From the NCBI GenBank assembly GCA_021791195.1, contig JAJYXB010000008.1, positions 10,921 through 74,920 of the forward strand: DNA of 64,000 nucleotides, in the 5' to 3' direction. Made by a program: the position numbers and the translations under genes. This document shows positions 26,267 to 38,996 of this stretch, one piece after another (positions within the stretch are counted from its first letter, which is position 1; each line of letters starts with the position of its first letter). The DNA comes from Actinomycetes bacterium (lineage in GTDB: Bacteria; Actinomycetota; Thermoleophilia; BMS3ABIN01). The notes beneath the pieces are model-generated. The model saw only the letters and a program-made list of their open reading frames with translations, ran no database searches and was not told the DNA's origin.

Positions 26267-26941
26267 CTACGGCTCATATCCGGGCAGGAAGACCCAGAGG
26301 TCTTTTGTTATGAGCCACTGGCTATTATCTAACTCCAGGGTGACCGTATGCTGCTCCGCGTTGCTACCACCGCCTTCATCACGATTATTATTGTAATCCA
26401 TATAGTAGGTTTCGCTATATATATCTACGACCACGGTTGCTTTATCGCCCTGGACTGAGATCCCCTTATAATCCATCTTTGTGATTGTGCTTTCGGATCT
26501 GCCCACGCCGGCTGCGGCCGATTGCATTTCCACGTCGATGGTGTGCTGTCTCTTTTGTAATTCGCCAGAGGCAGCACTAAAATACCTGTTAAGATTATCC
26601 TTTAATTCCTGACTACGGCCTCGATTCTCATATAGCAACGTATCTCTCTCCGCTTGAAAAGCATCATGGACGACTTGCATTAGTTGCTCCCAGGTCTTTG
26701 GATCACCCGCCCATTCACGATCGCTCGGGTCATATTTTGGGGGCGCCTCAGCCAGAATGTTGGCAGTATCTTTTCGCCCCTCGACTGTAAAAGTCTGACC
26801 ATTTTTTTTAACTGTAAATACTTTAATATTTTGCTGATATGTGTCGCTGGCAGCGCTGTCTGCATGGTGAATTAAAAAAAGCGTCAAGGCCAAAGCTCCT
26901 GCCAAAAATGTCGCTATTAGTGCAATTATTATTTTTCTCAT
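26267..26941 (-). CDS. Hypothetical exported protein (signal-anchor) within the lower-GC insert
   Basis: 224-aa ORF with an N-terminal hydrophobic signal and AT-rich codon usage unlike the host genes. Confidence 0.5.
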   Translation of the reverse strand: MRKIIIALIATFLAGALALTLFLIHHADSAASDTYQQNIKVFTVKKNGQTFTVEGRKDTANILAEAPPKYDPSDREWAGDPKTWEQLMQVVHDAFQAERDTLLYENRGRSQELKDNLNRYFSAASGELQKRQHTIDVEMQSAAAGVGRSESTITKMDYKGISVQGDKATVVVDIYSETYYMDYNNNRDEGGGSNAEQHTVTLELDNSQWLITKDLWVFLPGYEP

Positions 26942-26958
26942 CTATTTTCCTGGCGGAT

Positions 26959-27192
26959 TCAAGTCTGAAGTGCAACGGTTAACATGGTTGACGTTTTGAA
27001 TAATACTTCATACGGAGTTTTGAATCCAAGCTTTTTCCTAGGCCTATGATTCAATCGATGCTCGGCCTCGGCGATCTCGTCGTTGGTGATAGTGGTAAAG
27101 TCGTGCTTCTTGGGGGAGTATTGCCGGATGAGCCCGTTGGTGTTCTCGTTTAGACCCCGCTCCCAGGAAGAGTAGGGATGGGCAAGATGCAC
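26959..27192 (-). mobile_element. IS30-family transposase C-terminal remnant (truncated pseudogene)
   Basis: HPYSSWERGLNENTNGLIRQY...RPRKKLGFKTPYEV matches the IS30 integrase-core C-terminus. The DDE core and N-terminus are absent. Confidence 0.7.
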
Positions 27193-27253: not shown

Positions 27254-27278
27254 CGCCCGGGTCTTATTACAGCAGCAG
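27254..27278. repeat. 25-bp direct repeat, right copy; contains the queA stop codon
   Basis: Identical to 25893-25917. Confidence 0.75.
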
Positions 27279-28286
27279 CATCGCGTCGCCGAAGCTGAAG
27301 AAGCGGTAGCGCTCCCTGACCGCCTCGCCGTACAGCCGCCGGGTCTCATCCTCGCCGGCAAATGCCATCACCAGCGCCAGCAGGGTCGATCGGGGCAGAT
27401 GAAAATTGGTCAGCAGGGCATCCACGGCCCGGAACCTGAAACCGGGCGTGATGAACAGATCGGTGTCGCCCGCGAGCGGGCGCGGCGGTTCGCTGAAGAC
27501 CGTTTCCAGCGTGCGCACCGCGGTAGTGCCCACGGCCACAACCCTGCCGCCGCGTAGCTTCGCTTCCAGGATAGCCTTATAGCTCCCGGCAGGCACGCTG
27601 TAGCTCTCGCTGTGGATGGCGTGCAGCGAAAGATCGTCCTCGCTCACCGGACGGAAGGTGTCCAGACCGACGTGCAGTGTCACCGGAGCCAGCGCCACTC
27701 CCTGGGCTTTTATGTCAGAGATCAGCTCCTCAGTAAAGTGAAGCCCGGCGGTGGGCGCCGCTGCCGAGCCCGGCTCCCGCGCGTAGACCGTCTGGTAGCG
27801 CTCCGGCTCCCTGAGCTTCTCCCTGATGTACGGCGGCAGCGGCATCTCGCCGACCTGCTCCAGCAGCTCCCCCGTCGCCAGCCGGCTGCGGTTCCGGACC
27901 AGCCAGCGGCCCTCACCCAGCCGCCGCTGCAGCTCGAAGACCGGTTCGGACTCCGTGTCGACTTCAAGCCGCATGCCCTCGCTCAACCGGGCGGAGGGCT
28001 TCAGCAGCGCCTCCCAGATCTTTGCCTGCCGCCGGCGCAGAAAGAGGATCTCGACGCGGCCACCCGTGGGCTTGCGGGCGAAAACCCGCGCCCGCAGCAC
28101 GCGCGACTCGTTGTAGGCAAGGATATCCCCCGGGCTCAGGAAAGCCGGCAGGTCGCGCATCTTCCGGTGCTGCAGCCGGCCGCTGGCGCGCTCCCAGACC
28201 ATCAGGCGGCTGCTGTCGCGGGGGACCAGCGGATGCTGCGCGATCAGCTCCGGAGGCAGGTGGTAGTCCAGCTCGCTGGTGAGCAC
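27267..28286 (-). CDS. queA: S-adenosylmethionine:tRNA ribosyltransferase-isomerase
   Basis: QueA family N-terminus MLTSELDYHLPPELIAQHP and full-length similarity. Confidence 0.95.
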   Translation of the reverse strand: MLTSELDYHLPPELIAQHPLVPRDSSRLMVWERASGRLQHRKMRDLPAFLSPGDILAYNESRVLRARVFARKPTGGRVEILFLRRRQAKIWEALLKPSARLSEGMRLEVDTESEPVFELQRRLGEGRWLVRNRSRLATGELLEQVGEMPLPPYIREKLREPERYQTVYAREPGSAAAPTAGLHFTEELISDIKAQGVALAPVTLHVGLDTFRPVSEDDLSLHAIHSESYSVPAGSYKAILEAKLRGGRVVAVGTTAVRTLETVFSEPPRPLAGDTDLFITPGFRFRAVDALLTNFHLPRSTLLALVMAFAGEDETRRLYGEAVRERYRFFSFGDAMLLL

Positions 28287-32671: not shown

Positions 32672-33730
32672 CTAGAAAAGCTTCTCCTCCGCGGCCGGCG
32701 CCTCCCTGCCCTGTCCGCCCGCCGTACCGGGCGTCGTGGCGTCCAGATGCTCGTAGGCCAGCCGCGTGACGACGCGGCCGCGCGGGGTCCGTTTCAGCAT
32801 GCCGCGCTGCAGCAGATAGGGTTCGTAGACATCCTCGATGGTGTCCCGTTCCTCGCCCACCGCCACCGCCAGCGTACTCAGACCGACAGGGCCGCCGTCG
32901 AACTTCTCGATGATCAGCCGCAGGATCTCCCGGTCGACCTTGTCCAGACCCTCGCCGTCCACTTCCAGCAACCCGAGCGCGCTGCGGGCGATGTCGCGGG
33001 TGATGCGGCCTTCGGCTTTCACCTGCGCGTAATCGCGTACGCGCCTGAGCAGCCGGTTGCAGACGCGCGGCGTGCCCCGGGAGCGGCTGGCGATCTCCAT
33101 CAGGCCGTCCGCCTCGGCTTCGACCCCAAGAATGGACGCGGAACGAGCGGCTATTTTTGACAGTTCTGCCGCATTGTAATACTCCAGCCGGTGGGTGACG
33201 CCAAAGCGGTCTCTCAGCGGCGTGGTGATCAGTCCGGCGCGCGTGGTGGCGCCAACCATGGTGAACGGCGGCACGTCCAGGCGGATGGTGCGGGCGCTGG
33301 GACCCTGGCCGATGATGATGTCCAGCTGGTAGTCCTCCATCGCCGGGTAGAGCACCTCTTCCACCGAGCGGCCCAGGCGGTGGATCTCGTCGATGAAGAG
33401 GATGTCACCTTCCTGCAAATTAGTCAAAATCGCGGCAATGTCGGCCTTGCGCTCCAGCGCCGGACCGGACGTGGTGCGGATCGAGACGCCCATCTCGCCG
33501 GCGATGATGCCCGCCAGTGTCGTCTTGCCCAGGCCGGGCGGTCCCACCAGCAGCACGTGGTCAAGCGCCTCGCGGCGCCCCTGCGCCGCCTCGATGAAGA
33601 TCGACAACTGATCCCGGACGCTGTCCTGCCCGATGAAATCGTTGAAGCTGCGCGGCCTGAGGGAGACTTCCAACTCCTCTTCCTCCAGCCGCACCTCCGG
33701 GTCTGACAGGCGGATTTCGTCGTCATTCAT
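32672..33730 (-). CDS. ruvB: Holliday junction ATP-dependent DNA helicase RuvB
   Basis: Walker A ([11 protein letters not shown]), sensor motifs and the RuvB C-terminal winged helix. Confidence 0.95.
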
Positions 33731-33894
33731 TATCTGAATTTCTTTCGCAGCGCATGATTTCTCTTTGCTGATTGCCGCATATCTCTGAAGTACTCCTTCT
33801 TATTCCTGTCAGTTAGTGAAAGATAAAGAAAACATATCAATGGTGAACCAACGATCAAGCCAGCGATTATTCCAATGAATTGAGGGAATGGCAT
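33730..33894 (-). CDS. Small AT-rich ORF encoding a 54-aa single-TM peptide between ruvA and ruvB
   Basis: ATG at 33894 lies 2 nt after the ruvA stop (TAAAATG). Its TAA stop overlaps the ruvB ATG (TAATG). About 38% GC against a ~65% genome. Confidence 0.4.
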
Positions 33895-33895
33895 T

Positions 33896-34483
33896 TTACG
33901 CTCGACCAATCCGTTGTAGCGCAACCCGGATCAGTTCTTCAACCGGCTCATGGGGGTCGGCGCCCGCCAGCGCCGCCTCCGCCTCGCCGAAGTTGTATCC
34001 CAGGCTGATGAGCGCCTCGCGCGCCAGGCAGTAGCCGCCAGCGCCCGCGGCCTGGCCGCCGTCCGCGGCTGCCGCGACCGGCTGGCCCACCTTGTCCTTC
34101 AGCTCCAGCACCAGCCGTTCGGCGGTTTTCTTGCCGATGCCGGAGATGCTCTGGAAGAGAGCCACGTCCCTGGCCGCAACCGCCCGCCTGAGATCATCAG
34201 GCCCGTAGGCCGAGAGCACGGCGATGGCCACCTTCGGCCCCACACCAGAGACGCCCTTGAGCAATTCGAAAAAGTCGCGCTCCTCGGCCTCGACGAAACC
34301 GTAGAGGCTGAGGACGTCCTCGCGGACGTACAGATATGTGTGGACAAAAACTTCATTGATGGCATCGCCCAGAAAGGAAAGGCTGCGCCCGGACATGGTC
34401 AGCCGGTAGCCGACACCGCCGACATCGAGCACGATGCCTTCGGCGTCGCGCGCCTGGATCTTTCCTGTGAGAGAGGCGATCAT
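33896..34483 (-). CDS. ruvA: Holliday junction DNA helicase RuvA
   Basis: RuvA domains I-III (MIASLTGKI...GVGYRL...; HhH motifs GVGPKVA). Confidence 0.95.
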   Translation of the reverse strand: MIASLTGKIQARDAEGIVLDVGGVGYRLTMSGRSLSFLGDAINEVFVHTYLYVREDVLSLYGFVEAEERDFFELLKGVSGVGPKVAIAVLSAYGPDDLRRAVAARDVALFQSISGIGKKTAERLVLELKDKVGQPVAAAADGGQAAGAGGYCLAREALISLGYNFGEAEAALAGADPHEPVEELIRVALQRIGRA

Positions 34484-35058
34484 GACATCCCTCCGGCGGA
34501 AAAGCCCGGTCCGCCCGTCCGCCTGACCGGGCGCGGCTGCGCCGCCGCCAGCAGCGAATTTGATTGCATGGAATGGGCGTGACAGATTGCGACCGCAAGC
34601 GCGTCCGCGGCATGATCGGGGGAAGGCACCTTCGAAAGGCCCAGCAGCGCCTTTACCATCTGCTGCACCTGTGACTTGCTGGCGCGCCCGTAACCGACCA
34701 CCGCCTGCTTGATCCTCAGGGGAGTGTAGTCGTGCGGCGTGACGCCGCGCTCGGCGCAGGCCAGTACGGCCACGCCGCGCGCCTGGCCCACGGCCAGGGC
34801 CGTCTTCAGGTTGATGCCGCCGAAGAGTTCCTCGATGGCGGCCACCTCGGGATGATGTTCGTCGATCACTTCCAGCAACGCCCGGTGGATTTGCGAAAGG
34901 CGTTCGTGGCCGGCCTCACTGGCGGAGGTGACAATGCTGCCGTGTCCGATCAGCCGCGAGCGGCCCGCCTCATGCTCGATCACTCCCCAACCGGTTGCCG
35001 CGATGCCGGGATCGATGCCGAGCAGACGCACGGAGGAGCTTTTTTGTTTCAGGGCCAA
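34480..35058 (-). CDS. ruvC: Crossover junction endodeoxyribonuclease RuvC
   Basis: RNase H-like fold (LLGIDPGIAATGWGV...). Overlaps ruvA by 4 nt. Confidence 0.9.
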   Translation of the reverse strand: MALKQKSSSVRLLGIDPGIAATGWGVIEHEAGRSRLIGHGSIVTSASEAGHERLSQIHRALLEVIDEHHPEVAAIEELFGGINLKTALAVGQARGVAVLACAERGVTPHDYTPLRIKQAVVGYGRASKSQVQQMVKALLGLSKVPSPDHAADALAVAICHAHSMQSNSLLAAAQPRPVRRTGGPGFSAGGMS

Positions 35059-35152
35059 TCTGCCTACGCCTTTCTGTCAACCCTCGTTCCCGCGGCAAGT
35101 GCCGGACCGGAGCCGCGCGGCATCCTCGCGCGTCTCGCCGGCGCGCGGATGT

Positions 35153-35899
35153 TTACGCCAGCGCCTCCAGCACTTCCTCGCTGATGTCGAAGTTGGCGTG
35201 CACTTCCTGGACGTCGTCGTTGTCCTCCAGGGCGTCCATCAGCCGCATCATCTTCTTGGCGTCGCTCTGCTCGAGTTTGACCGTGGTCTTGGGGAGCATG
35301 GCCAGCTCAGCGGACTCGTAGGCGATGCCGGCGTCATCGATGGCCTGCCGCACGGTCATGAAATCGGCCGGGTCGGTGACGATCTCGTAGGTGCCCTCAT
35401 CCTGGTTGACGTCCTCGGCGCCGGCGTCGATGGCGGCCGTCATCAGCTCGTCCTCGTCGACCTTGCCGGCGTCCACGACGATCGAGCCCTTGCGCTCGAA
35501 CAGCCAGGCCACCGAGCCGGTCTCGCCCAGCTTGCCGCCGGTCTTGTTAAAGATGTTGCGCACGTCCGACGCGGTGCGGTTGCGGTTGTCGGTCATCGCC
35601 TCCACCAGCACGGCGACGCCGGCCGGTCCGTAGCCCTCATAGGTGATGGTCTCGTAGGACTCGCCGTCGCCGCCACCGGTGCCCTTGGCGATGGCGCGCT
35701 CGATGTTATCCTTCGGCATCGAGTTGTCCTTGGCCTTCTGGATGGCGGTCGCCAGCGTGGCGTTGCCGGCCGGGTCGCCGCCGCCCTCCTTGGCCGCCAC
35801 GGTGATGGCGCGCGAAAGCTTGGAAAAGAGCTTGCCGCGTTTGGTGTCAGCGGCGCCCTTCTTGTGTTTGATGGATGACCATTTGGAATGTCCGGACAC
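35153..35899 (-). CDS. yebC: YebC/PmpR-family transcriptional regulator
   Basis: [28 protein letters not shown] is the conserved YebC N-terminus. Confidence 0.95.
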
Positions 35900-36156: not shown

Positions 36157-36426
36157 TTAGCCCTCGATCTTCAGCTCCATGTCGGGAATCGCTGATGCGA
36201 TCCGCTTTAGTTGGTCCGCGCTGAAGCCGTTACCGTAAAGTCCCATGAAAATCTTCCCCTTCAGCTGCGCTGCGGTGATTCCCGGGTCTTGCCTCCTGAT
36301 GCCGATCTCCATCAGTTGCTTGGCCGTCTCGAACATGTCGCTGGCCATCTGAAGGCGCTCGGCGGGAGTGCGCTCGGTAAACATTGAGAGCCACAACTTC
36401 TCTACGGCGGGTGGGGTGTCACGCAT
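36157..36426 (-). CDS. Hypothetical 89-aa protein, partner of the upstream nucleotidyltransferase-fold gene
   Basis: Overlaps the upstream gene by 8 nt. Lower GC. No recognised domain. Confidence 0.4.
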   Translation of the reverse strand: MRDTPPAVEKLWLSMFTERTPAERLQMASDMFETAKQLMEIGIRRQDPGITAAQLKGKIFMGLYGNGFSADQLKRIASAIPDMELKIEG

Positions 36427-36970
36427 TCTGCTGAGCCTTCCTTAACAAACCATCCACTTCGAGCCGTTTGGCCCATTCATGGAGGTAATCGTAGTCGAGC
36501 TTTTCGTGGGCTTTCAGAATCTGCTCGACATACCTCATCTGAAATTCCGGTTCGGAGTCCTTTGCCCAAACAAGCTTGGACAGAATAAGGTCTTCCGCCG
36601 CGACGACCGTAACCGGGACATCGCCCATCTCGATTCGCTGTCTGCGCGAGAACTCCCTCAGCCGGTAATCCTCGTCCTTTCTCACGATGAAATCGAATTT
36701 GACCGCCGATTCGGTGTGAATGATGTTGAACATGTCATGTCGCGCAATCGCTTCCCGCACGGCATGTTCATCGATGTAGAAGTCTTCCTTAAAAATTCTT
36801 ACGAGTTTGTCAACTAGTTCGGAAGAAATGTGAAGCACCATGTCGATGTCCCTCGTCATCCTGGGGGCCGAGTAAAGTGACATTGCAATGGAGCCGGTGA
36901 GCATATAATCGATGCCCGCTTCGTCGAGTCTGGACGTTACAACTTTTAGCAGATCGAACTCGGTGGTCAT
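36419..36970 (-). CDS. Nucleotidyltransferase-fold protein (minimal NTase/Lnu-like: GS...DIDMV)
   Basis: DYMLTGSIAMSLYSAPRMTRDIDMVL matches the Pol-beta superfamily hG[GS]...DxD signature. 183 aa. Its start overlaps the stop of the truncated HEPN ORF. Confidence 0.5.
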   Translation of the reverse strand: MTTEFDLLKVVTSRLDEAGIDYMLTGSIAMSLYSAPRMTRDIDMVLHISSELVDKLVRIFKEDFYIDEHAVREAIARHDMFNIIHTESAVKFDFIVRKDEDYRLREFSRRQRIEMGDVPVTVVAAEDLILSKLVWAKDSEPEFQMRYVEQILKAHEKLDYDYLHEWAKRLEVDGLLRKAQQNA

Positions 36971-37182
36971 GGCTTAATGCTTGGTCGGATCAGTCCCGCT
37001 GCCTGAGCTCCTCCAGAAACCTTGCTTGCGGCCTCACCGATAATCTCAATGGATTTAATGAGCGAAAGTGTCAACTTTCGGTCCGCGTCGAGATCGCTTC
37101 TTGTCTTGCCAGATATAAATGAAACAGCCTCGCGGGCTGAATCGAGCATGTGGCGAAGGCGAATGATATCGTCAGGCAGCAT
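36967..37182 (-). pseudogene. Truncated HepT-like HEPN (DUF86) toxin gene lacking the C-terminal Rx4-6H motif
   Basis: IIRLRHMLDSAREAVSF...LSLIKSIEIIGEAASKV matches the N-terminal two-thirds of DUF86. The ORF ends exactly where the 183-aa gene starts. Confidence 0.5.
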
Positions 37183-37480
37183 ACTGAACTTCAGCCTCAG
37201 CGATGACGTCATCGCGAAAATAACGACTCAGATCCTCGGGTGTGCGCAGATCCGCTTTTCTGCCCAGCATTTCGGAAAGCTCCCGCTCCATGCGGGCGAG
37301 ACGGATAAAACCCGGAACATGACCTGGCTCGAACTCGACCAGCACATCGATATCGCTGTCGGGCCGGAAGTCGCTTCGCAAAACAGATCCAAAGAAGGCG
37401 AACTTGCGGATATGATTGCTGCGGCAAAAGTCGGCAATCTTTGACTTGGGAATTTCGATCTTTGGCTTCATCGATGTCAT
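37172..37480 (-). CDS. MntA-like minimal nucleotidyltransferase (antitoxin-type)
   Basis: [24 protein letters not shown] is the classic MNT motif. The ORF is open to 37696 with a GC-rich 72-aa N-terminal extension of unclear status. Confidence 0.6.
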
Positions 37481-37734
37481 TTCATTATCAGCACAAAAGC
37501 GGTGGCCACATTGATGGGTCTCGTTGTAAGCGGGGCTCTTGTAGGCGGCTTCGTTGTTGCGGAAGTTTTCCACCAGCTCGGCGATGCGGGCGCGGGTTTC
37601 GGCGGGCACTGCCAGACGCGGCGTTTCCTCGGGCGCATTTGGCGCGGCTTGCCGCGCTCCCGTAGACGCATCCATAGCTTGGCCGTCAGTTGACATGAAG
37701 CAATTATATCACCAGGCGCGGACGGGCTCGGGAA

Positions 37735-38355
37735 TTATTGCTTCCTTTTTGCCGGCGCCTGCTTCTCGGGAGCGCGCTTCTTCTTTGCCGGCGCCTCGGG
37801 ATTCCAGTGAAATCCGATCTGATTCTTCTTCGGCTTCGGGGGTTCCATCAGTTGGCGGATGGCTTCGAAGACGACGCGGAATTGGGCATCGTATTTCTTC
37901 TCCAGCGAGTCGAGTTTGCGGGCCAGATCTGCGTGCGAGTAGGAAATCCTTTTCAGGCTGACAAATGCTCTCATGATTTCGATATTGACGCTAATTGCCC
38001 GCTTGCTCCTGAGAACACTCGAAAGCATCGCAACACCTTGTTCGGTGAAAGCGTAAGGCAGATACTTAGCATGCCGGCCGCGCTGGGAATCACCCGGTAA
38101 ACCCGTGGCGGTGGATGAGAGGTTTTCTGACGCAAAGAAGCTTTTGGCCTTTAATGCCGTTAATTCCGCCTTTAATAGCTGGAACATGAAATCATCCGGA
38201 AACCTCTCAATGTTCCGTTTGACAGCCTGGATCAATACCCGATGTTCGACTTCATAGAGCCGGGCCAGGTCATCGCTCAACATTACCTTGTTTCCACGTA
38301 GAACAACGATCTTTTTTTCAACGACTTCTTCCGAAACAATTGCAATTTCTTTCAC
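37735..38355 (-). CDS. ORF6N (KilA-N-like) domain DNA-binding protein
   Basis: [42 protein letters not shown]...[15 protein letters not shown] matches the ORF6N domain. GTG start with GGGAGG Shine-Dalgarno. Lys-rich tail. Confidence 0.75.
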
Positions 38356-38564: not shown

Positions 38565-38996
38565 CTACCCCGGCATCAGCGCCGCGATGCCCTTTGGCAG
38601 CGCCGCCCTGATCTTCTCCACCTCGCCGTGGTCGAGATGCAGCGTGATCGTTTCCAGCACGGTGCTGGTCATGCGCCTGACGTCGAGCCCCTCATCACGG
38701 TCATAGATGAAGCGCCGTGCGATCTCATCGAGGAACTCCTGCCGGTTCATCTTGACCGGCACACGGGCGGGCGCCCAGCCCTCGTAATAGATGCCCCGCA
38801 CCAGCTCGGGCAGCTGGGCGCCGAGGCTGGCGGCGGCGTTGACAGGCAGCCGGTCCCTGAGTGTGTGCAGCACCACCCTCATGGCCAGCAGCGCCTCGTC
38901 CGGCCGGCCCTGCCAGCCCATCTCCCGCTCGATCTCCGAGAGGATGCGGTTGGTCTTTTCGACTGTGGTGCTGATCGCGGCAACGTTCTCAGCCAT
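38565..38996 (-). CDS. DUF2267 domain protein
   Basis: 143-aa product with the DUF2267-like pattern (LPELVRGIYYEGWAP). Confidence 0.7.
   Translation of the reverse strand: MAENVAAISTTVEKTNRILSEIEREMGWQGRPDEALLAMRVVLHTLRDRLPVNAAASLGAQLPELVRGIYYEGWAPARVPVKMNRQEFLDEIARRFIYDRDEGLDVRRMTSTVLETITLHLDHGEVEKIRAALPKGIAALMPG

Follow-up and report, generated by a model that had tools for sequence, protein, structure and literature searches.

Is the short AT-rich segment that separates ruvA from ruvB in an uncultured Thermoleophilia bacterium a gene, how did it come to lie there, and what might it do? We addressed these questions for a stretch of 64,000 nucleotides (nt) of Actinomycetes bacterium (NCBI GenBank assembly GCA_021791195.1, contig JAJYXB010000008.1, positions 10,921 to 74,920), hereafter called the window, whose numbering is used for all coordinates and in which the ruv locus lies entirely on the minus strand. 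The segment holds a 54-codon open reading frame (ORF) at 33730-33894. Our analysis makes it likely that this small ORF is a real gene for a small membrane protein, which arrived on a recombination patch and is coupled in translation to its neighbours.

Evidence for a gene comes above all from homologues in the same position. When 1.84 billion representative proteins were searched exhaustively with phmmer, one credible match to the peptide emerged, P0121 (E 1.8e-9), which is encoded in locus L103 likewise between ruvA and ruvB; read from its internal methionine, P0121 is MDWPQIIGIVIGLILGSPLLYVAYKSATDRNKKKMFMEMRESARKHKEQKEARKK and shares 57% identity with the window peptide. We refer to these two as type A. 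Walking through RuvA homologues revealed more distant occupants of the same slot, referred to as type B: MSLSLIMGLLFGMAVGGPLYYFYITHKAKRRQERQMRDRQSRSSMKKDEEQEEQEEQGK in L108/L109, MSLSLILGLSLGLVVGAPLYYAYLIFKKKRERMARRNSEENTQGELVKKEEQESQEK in L190/L191 (GenBank MHB8791910.1, annotated as hypothetical protein) and MSWPLVLGILFGMAVGGPA..., partial because of a contig end, in L104. In total, homologues occupy the slot between ruvA and ruvB in four Thermoleophilia lineages besides that of the window. Other searches added no further members. An exact look-up of the peptide in a gene-position index found nothing on record, a word-index homology search gave no match with the peptide and P0121 alone with a two-sequence profile, and a peptide-pattern scan of JGI metagenomes yielded 251 pattern matches, none of them real. 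Two further proteins from the exhaustive search, P0122 and P0123, were rejected as spurious, being a repeat protein and a eukaryotic receptor. A profile hidden Markov model (HMM) of the four full-length members, run against six-frame translations of 191 loci and the window, matched junction ORFs only. It gives the window ORF 95.8 bits, a circular score as this ORF is among the four training sequences, and the informative part is the absence of other matches.

The way in which the homologues differ points to selection on the protein. Between the window and L103, differences at codon positions 1, 2 and 3 number 19, 13 and 34 of 53, with a proportion of synonymous differences (pS) of 0.82, which is saturated, against a proportion of non-synonymous differences (pN) of 0.31, and the ratio of non-synonymous to synonymous rates (dN/dS) between L108 and L190 is about 0.21. 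In all carriers the small gene lies on the same strand as ruvB and its stop falls -4 to +4 nt from the ruvB start; the two overlap in L103 (GTGA) and are 4 nt apart in L108 and L190. Homologues in the same slot, protein-level conservation and codon-level selection together argue that this is a real protein-coding gene, as the preliminary description of this DNA had proposed. Judged from its sequence, the small ORF is a genuine gene of an undescribed membrane-protein family, and in everything sampled the family is confined to the ruvA-ruvB slot of one Thermoleophilia group.

It is extremely improbable that the segment is instead a non-coding AT-rich linker carrying a chance ORF, a structured RNA or the scar of a mobile element. 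Such a linker would fit with the lack of any gene-caller prediction in the contigs read from the window's species, and an open frame over 53 codons is found in 2.4% of shuffles at the composition of the ORF. It would leave the intact homologous ORFs in the same slot and their conservation at the protein level unexplained. Further, Rfam has no match for the segment, and its RNA fold (z = +1.09) is less structured than shuffles. Neither a second copy in the window nor inverted or direct repeats flanking the ORF beyond chance-level short matches were found, and homologues were absent from phages and IMG/VR, with a single noise match (E = 0.1) among plasmids and only matches at E >= 0.008 in PHROGs. 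The same spacer with a broken ORF, which would have pointed to a linker, was seen in no relative. Across the 18 conspecific loci checked in NCBI, ENA, JGI and Logan, including the NCBI metagenome-assembled genomes (MAGs) GCA_027392895.1 and GCA_028065365.1, the ORF is intact in every case, with 17 identical peptides and one variant. The variant, L014 (GCA_027392815.1, L014:1498-1695), carries three single-nucleotide polymorphisms (SNPs) in 165 nt, namely F6L, a synonymous change at S26 and D29G, and its frame stays open. The ruvA tail adjoining the variant ORF in L014 likewise has SNPs.

The gene order on the minus strand is yebC, ruvC, ruvA, the 54-codon ORF, ruvB and an MMPL transporter gene, with the following features (Shine-Dalgarno, SD; free energies are for pairing with the anti-SD sequence).

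35153-35899, minus strand: yebC/TACO1-family gene, first in the cluster
34480-35058, minus strand: ruvC, whose stop overlaps the ruvA start
33896-34483, minus strand: ruvA, mosaic, 195 amino acids (aa), Pfam RuvA_N, HHH_5 and RuvA_C
33892-33898, minus strand: TAAAATG junction from ruvA stop to small-ORF start, with a weak SD (-4.8 kcal/mol)
33730-33894, minus strand: small ORF, type A allele of the ruvA-x-ruvB membrane-protein family, 54 aa, coordinates including the stop
33838-33873, minus strand: glycine-zipper core G8-x3-G12-x3-G16-x-P18-L19, invariant in four full-length members
33820-33876, minus strand: predicted transmembrane (TM) helix, residues 7-25 (Kyte-Doolittle mean 2.32 over 19 residues; AlphaFold2)
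33733-33813, minus strand: predicted cytoplasmic tail, residues 28-54, with a conserved juxtamembrane basic cluster and a remainder that is basic in type A and acidic in type B
33728-33732, minus strand: TAATG junction, small-ORF stop overlapping the ruvB start, with the SD nearly absent (-1.2 kcal/mol)
32672-33730, minus strand: ruvB, 352 aa, Pfam RuvB_N (2.6e-80), AAA_lid_4 and RuvB_C

The two junctions are tight. The ruvA TAA (33898-33896) is followed by the single base 33895 and then by the small-ORF ATG (33894-33892), so the TAAAATG motif reported earlier is present with one intervening nucleotide and not two. At the other end the reported TAATG is exact: the final A of the small-ORF TAA (33732-33730) is base 33730, the first base of the ruvB ATG (33730-33728). 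The low GC content ascribed to the segment (about 38%) was also reproduced. We measured 38.8% for 33730-33894, compared with an average of 62.9% (standard deviation, sd, 6.1%) for 165-nt windows across the 64 kb, which places the segment about 4 sd below the mean and makes it the third-lowest 165-nt spot. Codon usage is indeed unlike that of the neighbouring genes, with a GC content at third codon positions (GC3) of 0.41 compared with 0.84; when the peptide was recoded with the codon usage of the neighbours, GC3 was 0.84 +/- 0.05 and never below 0.63 in 5000 simulations. This is a property of the family as a whole. In every carrier, GC3 of the small gene is lower than that of its neighbours (0.41/0.84, 0.64/0.84, 0.59/0.85 and 0.61/0.71), and the persistence of low GC3 despite ancient divergence would reflect either selection for AT-richness or repeated re-import from a lower-GC pool.

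The reading of the product as a membrane peptide with one TM helix and a basic tail agrees with our analysis. Residues 7-25 form the only hydrophobic 19-mer of the peptide, and its 29-residue tail contains 11 lysine or arginine and 3 aspartate or glutamate residues. The AlphaFold2 model consists of one continuous helix over residues 3-53 (predicted local distance difference test score, pLDDT, 82.7). Following the positive-inside rule, the N-terminus would lie outside and the tail in the cytoplasm. M1, G8, G12, G16 and P18 are common to all copies including the partial one from L104, and L19 is common to the four full-length members, resulting in a GxxxGxxxG-x-PL motif followed by the basic cluster. 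The two types diverge beyond it: type A is AT-rich, carries a TDRNKK motif and has a strongly basic distal tail, whereas that of the GC-richer type B is acidic.

To place the acquisition, the close relatives of the organism have to be considered together with the following two features.

33723-33953, minus strand: recombination patch, 231 nt, 42% GC, standing for about 67 nt of L099
33899-33953, minus strand: imported ruvA 3' end, about 18 codons, PHEPVEELIRVALQRIGRA, with many A/T-ending codons, encoding the end of RuvA domain III

By its RuvA homologues the organism belongs to Thermoleophilia, and a neighbour-joining tree of RuvA puts the window in one group with P0001, P0002, P0003, P0011 and P0004/5/7. 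All members of this group with readable DNA (L099, L100, L101 and L102) are without the ORF. In L099 and L100, whose RuvA proteins are 92% and 86% identical to that of the window, the ruvA TAG abuts the ruvB ATG (TAGATG); the junction contains a 52-nt spacer with a hairpin in L101 and a 111-nt spacer in L102, the latter a repeat of which L102 has another copy upstream of ruvC. Within these L102 spacers, a 57-nt AT-rich repeat occurs in 88% identical copies between yebC and ruvC (L102:2395-2451) and between ruvA and ruvB (L102:3586-3642); this short, dispersed element of intergenic DNA has no relation to the small ORF.

Comparison with L099 delimits the imported piece. Towards ruvC and ruvA the two sequences agree at 96.2% of 601 nt and towards ruvB at 98.3% of 176 nt, and in between, at 33723-33953, no alignable identity exists. 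Along ruvA itself, identity to L099 is 0.87-1.00 and falls to 0.62 in the last 15-codon window. L099 has the tail type common to L100 and L101 (VEELVKGALKK...), and the window tail PHEPVEELIRVALQRIGRA scores best against the tails of the ORF-bearing clade (VEELVRQALKRIGKA, L108 lineage), not against the VEELVKGALKKMAKRS of its own clade. As the replaced stretch covers the last ~18 ruvA codons, the import includes the ruvA 3' end along with the ORF. The preliminary description of a 165-bp insert therefore gave the extent of the ORF correctly and that of the insert too narrowly, the imported piece being about 231 nt and reaching to about 33953. Its suggestion of recent acquisition is borne out by the ORF-free TAGATG junctions of the nearest relatives and the sharp patch edges in 96-98% identical DNA; atypical codon usage alone is no proof of recency, given the low GC3 family-wide. 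What was gained is new to this species and not foreign to the slot, as the family resides between ruvA and ruvB in a neighbouring clade.

The patch would be a short homologous-recombination or gene-conversion tract from a lower-GC donor that already carried ruvA, the ORF and ruvB in this order, with crossovers at about ruvA codon 177 and in the first ruvB codons. The type A allele would thus move by homologous recombination with the conserved ruvA and ruvB as arms and would need no transposition mechanism. A transposable element, a miniature inverted-repeat transposable element or an integron cassette was considered and rejected: there are no terminal repeats, the window holds a single copy, and the boundaries lie inside homologous ruvA and ruvB.

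Alternatively, the ORF could be ancestral and have been precisely deleted in L099, L100, L101 and L102, which we regard as very improbable. The junction is certainly unstable, with 0 nt, a 52-nt hairpin spacer, a 111-nt repeat element and a 103-nt GC-rich repeat across lineages, and the ORF-bearing relatives of L105 demonstrate that loss occurs. Deletion would, however, require at least 2-3 independent losses. It would also have to accommodate that tail and junction of L099 and L100 diverge like the rest of the gene and are both typical of the clade, that the window tail, at 62% identity, resembles another clade, and that the patch has sharp edges within ~97% identical DNA. Import into the window's species is favoured over loss by parsimony and by the similarity of the tail to outgroups.

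Searches in wider databases supplied a negative baseline. Among the matches listed, a RuvA-profile scan of JGI metagenomes gave RuvA proteins at most 55% identical and a RuvB scan of GTDB genomes gave RuvB proteins 59-72% identical, in both cases distant relatives only; the family HMM found no match on these, a result that does not cover the close clade.

A second arrival of type A can be read from L103. The RuvA of L103 is closest to that of L104 (89.5% identity). Downstream of ruvA, L103 has about 16 codons, MLSWPLVFGILCSRIG, homologous to the start of the GC-rich type B gene of L104, MSWPLVLGILFGMAVG, and this type B stretch is followed by a full-length type A gene of higher AT content, whose GTGA end overlaps the ruvB start. 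P0121 corresponds to the called 74-aa gene, a mosaic at L103:1962-2018 (ENA ERZ27237563 k141_2229887) in which the type B start is in frame with the type A ORF. By this alignment, a type B gene was resident there and type A has overwritten its 3' part. We had also considered the stretch upstream of type A as a remnant of a donor ruvA tail (RIG), which was dropped as it aligns better with the L104 type B ORF. Type A atop a type B remnant argues that type A spreads by recombination within ruv operons, and on the sequences at hand it has entered the slot at least twice. As the synonymous divergence of the two type A carriers is saturated, neither is the recent donor of the other. Type B looks resident in the clade of L104, L108 and L190, with one loss (L105-107). 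L105 (L105:1538-1640), L106 and L107 carry a 103-nt GC-rich ruvA-ruvB spacer with near-tandem GGCAAGGC(A/G)GCCC units, a hairpin and no ORF, and the junction is a hot spot for differing insertions in their clade.

The import also bears on how RuvB is made. In insert-free relatives, ruvB is preceded by a strong GAGGAG SD within the ruvA tail, with -8.5 kcal/mol (L099) and -8.3 kcal/mol pairing to the anti-SD. The 22 nt upstream of ruvB in the window reach only -1.2 kcal/mol, compared with -4.8 kcal/mol upstream of the small ORF. Removal of the GAGGAG SD by the import implies that RuvB synthesis probably depends on re-initiation after the small ORF. A translational relay by termination and re-initiation would run from ruvA through the small ORF to ruvB, with ribosomes terminating at TAATG and then re-initiating on ruvB, and any synthesis of RuvA and RuvB would also yield the peptide. 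We infer that this relay is the likely mode of expression and that the import altered how RuvB is made and tied synthesis of the peptide to that of RuvA and RuvB. Of the translational coupling proposed earlier, the geometry stands, since it recurs in every carrier and the ruvB SD is nearly absent; the coupling itself is deduced from it.

The loss of the ruvB SD could also be taken to mean that the segment acts in cis. The AT-rich stretch would then set how much RuvA is made relative to RuvB, be it by the efficiency of coupling, by slow codons or by an internal promoter, and the peptide would be incidental. Low GC3 in all carriers despite saturated divergence suggests nucleotide-level selection, and the RNA of the segment, with less structure than shuffles, would fit as well. 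In addition, a sigma-70-like match (ATGCCA-17-AATAAT, 9/12 with extended TG) lies inside the ORF on the coding strand, running from 33894 to 33866 and facing ruvB, and could act as an internal ruvB promoter. Yet this is a single weak consensus match in AT-rich DNA and probably a by-product of AT-richness at the small-ORF start, a plain SD suffices in insert-free relatives, and a cis role leaves the amino-acid conservation with its invariant glycine zipper unexplained. We consider such a role quite doubtful. With regard to other signals, a consensus-level test found no promoter-like site on the plus strand over the small ORF, and no conserved promoter site was found. GAACGAGGGTTG at 35078-35089, about 20 nt upstream of the ruvC start, is one mismatch from GAAC-N4-GTTC, a LexA-type consensus that may not be that of this lineage, and sites of this kind are at chance level window-wide (23 vs 20 expected).

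What the peptide does can be narrowed down from what is conserved. The glycine zipper in the TM segment and the juxtamembrane basic cluster are maintained and the charge of the tail flips, which argues for action within the membrane rather than DNA binding. With low confidence, we consider the membrane its most likely place of action, where the peptide would self-associate or pack against a membrane protein. Family resemblance offers no further lead. Pfam (including YajC and the type I toxin families), NCBIfam and PADLOC returned best E values of 0.003-0.1 to unrelated TM proteins, a PDB profile search with the family gave TM-helix noise only (best E 0.13), and a search of the literature on genes located between these two ruv genes brought up only papers on the RuvA-RuvB interaction. 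As a functional reading, a membrane-embedded modulator coupled to recombinational repair and co-produced with RuvAB is put forward tentatively, as an idea whose chances are limited. Such a modulator would act in the manner of SidA, DidA, YneA and DinQ, small membrane proteins that hold back division or change membrane activity while DNA is repaired, without being homologous to any of them. A more specific version, in which the peptide would be a membrane partner dedicated to the Holliday-junction machinery, produced through the relay at a constant ratio to RuvA and RuvB and signalling ongoing recombination through its glycine zipper to division, segregation or energisation, and would at the same time be a self-propagating allele that invades ruv operons by homologous recombination and entrenches itself via the dependence of ruvB, seems unlikely.

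The horizontal movement of type A also raises the question of a selfish or toxin-like peptide, an addictive wedge that spreads horizontally and is kept because imprecise removal abolishes ruvB translation. Small single-TM peptides with charged tails include the toxins TisB, DinQ and Hok (PMC3567139). The peptide has spread horizontally at least twice with one allele displacing another, its distribution is patchy, its GC3 is persistently atypical, and its arrival removed the ruvB SD and would have left ruvB dependent on the ORF. These observations are set against the absence of an antisense promoter, a structured 5' leader or a separate promoter in our searches and of toxin-family matches in Pfam, NCBIfam and PADLOC. 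Constitutive co-expression with housekeeping repair genes would be intolerable for a potent toxin, and in one clade type B seems to have been inherited vertically under purifying selection. On balance we give a selfish or toxin-like nature only a small chance.

Several points weigh against our view of an imported, coupled and functional membrane-protein gene. The ORF is annotated by no gene caller in the window's species, as mentioned. In L014, 2 non-synonymous changes face 1 synonymous one, with D29G falling in the TDRNKK motif, which is uninformative or mildly against constraint on the tail. Conservation statistics are based on four full-length sequences and five carrier lineages, the survey of close relatives covers about 10 lineages, and gain here as opposed to loss in L099 is a direction read from parsimony and the similarity of the tail to outgroups. 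The patchy distribution and easy loss argue for an accessory function. With respect to a link to DNA damage, no LexA-type box upstream of ruvC or yebC is conserved in carriers, and the site at 35078-35089 is missing in L100-L108 and L190. Finally, all carriers are uncultured MAGs, and expression and function are deduced from their sequences.

Elsewhere in the window, a low-GC accessory block (36157-38355) lies just upstream of yebC and encodes a Rv0078B-like antitoxin with an AbiEii nucleotidyltransferase toxin, a truncated HepT-like gene with an MNT nucleotidyltransferase, and an ORF6N-domain protein. In L101, the DUF2267 gene (window 38565-38996) adjoins yebC, so that this ~2.2-kb toxin-antitoxin block looks inserted. 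The lowest-GC spot of the window (26784-26948, 34.5%) falls within 26267-27192, a region with the gene for a 224-aa N-terminally anchored protein and a 77-aa fragment reading like a transposase or integrase end, both without a Pfam match and both abutting queA (27267-28286).

Small membrane proteins are systematically missed by annotation, and the ruvA-x-ruvB family is one without a Pfam or NCBIfam model. It provides an example of a conserved family of small proteins that keeps to a single intercistronic position in a core operon for DNA repair, of an allele crossing species by a short homologous-recombination patch that leaves a mosaic ruvA, and, as far as can be inferred, of an insertion that rewires a downstream essential-type gene from SD-driven to re-initiation-driven translation. 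Should the peptide link RuvAB activity to the membrane, Holliday-junction processing would gain a novel connection; should it be selfish, it would represent a new entrenchment strategy for a small gene inside a core operon. The reach of these findings is limited to the few uncultured Thermoleophilia in which the family has so far been found.

How does the family compare with known systems? YajC (PF02699) is a small Sec-associated membrane protein whose gene often lies near ruvAB, queA and tgt, and in many bacteria in the neighbourhood of ruvB and queA. In YajC as in the small ORF product, a TM helix at the N-terminus precedes a basic stretch, and queA is present in the window as well (see above). 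The small ORF product is half as long and does not possess the soluble domain of YajC. None of the four members gave a Pfam match to PF02699 at E <= 10, and YajC was rejected as an identity.

Among peptides connected with DNA damage, DinQ is an SOS-induced single-TM peptide of E. coli that affects recombination and nucleoid compaction (PMC3567139). DinQ and TisB resemble the small ORF product in being single-TM, DNA-damage-linked and of a similar size class with a charged tail. They differ in that they are encoded at free-standing loci with antisense RNA and processed structured mRNAs, whereas the small ORF is operon-coupled, without an antisense promoter or leader structure and without homology to either. 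Membership of a type I toxin family (Hok, TisB, DinQ, Fst, Ldr, Ibs) was rejected, as there was no sequence match and, in consensus-level tests, no promoter of its own, antisense RNA or structured mRNA.

SidA and DidA of Caulobacter and YneA of Bacillus are small membrane division inhibitors tied to the DNA-damage response (PMC6051672). SosA and ChiZ were counted with them in the comparison. These are similarly small, with one TM segment, and are repair-linked and act in the membrane on membrane proteins; here, conservation is confined to the TM part and the gene would be translated together with repair genes. They share no sequence similarity with the small ORF product and have LexA-controlled promoters of their own, often by lexA, whereas the small ORF lies inside ruvAB with no conserved LexA box, and its product has no LysM or other extracellular domain.

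A parallel in gene organisation is offered by KdpF (kdpFABC), CydX (cydABX) and AcrZ, very small single-TM proteins that are often unannotated, embedded in operons and active through packing of their TM helix. The small ORF product shares with these its very small size, its single TM helix and its translation from within an operon. Their partners are membrane complexes, whereas RuvA and RuvB are soluble DNA-binding proteins, so that no membrane partner is encoded in the operon. The gene downstream of ruvB varies, being MMPL in the window and DUF3048 on the opposite strand elsewhere. Operon-embedded small membrane proteins as a kind are known already; what is new is a family of them that keeps to one intercistronic position in the ruv operon.

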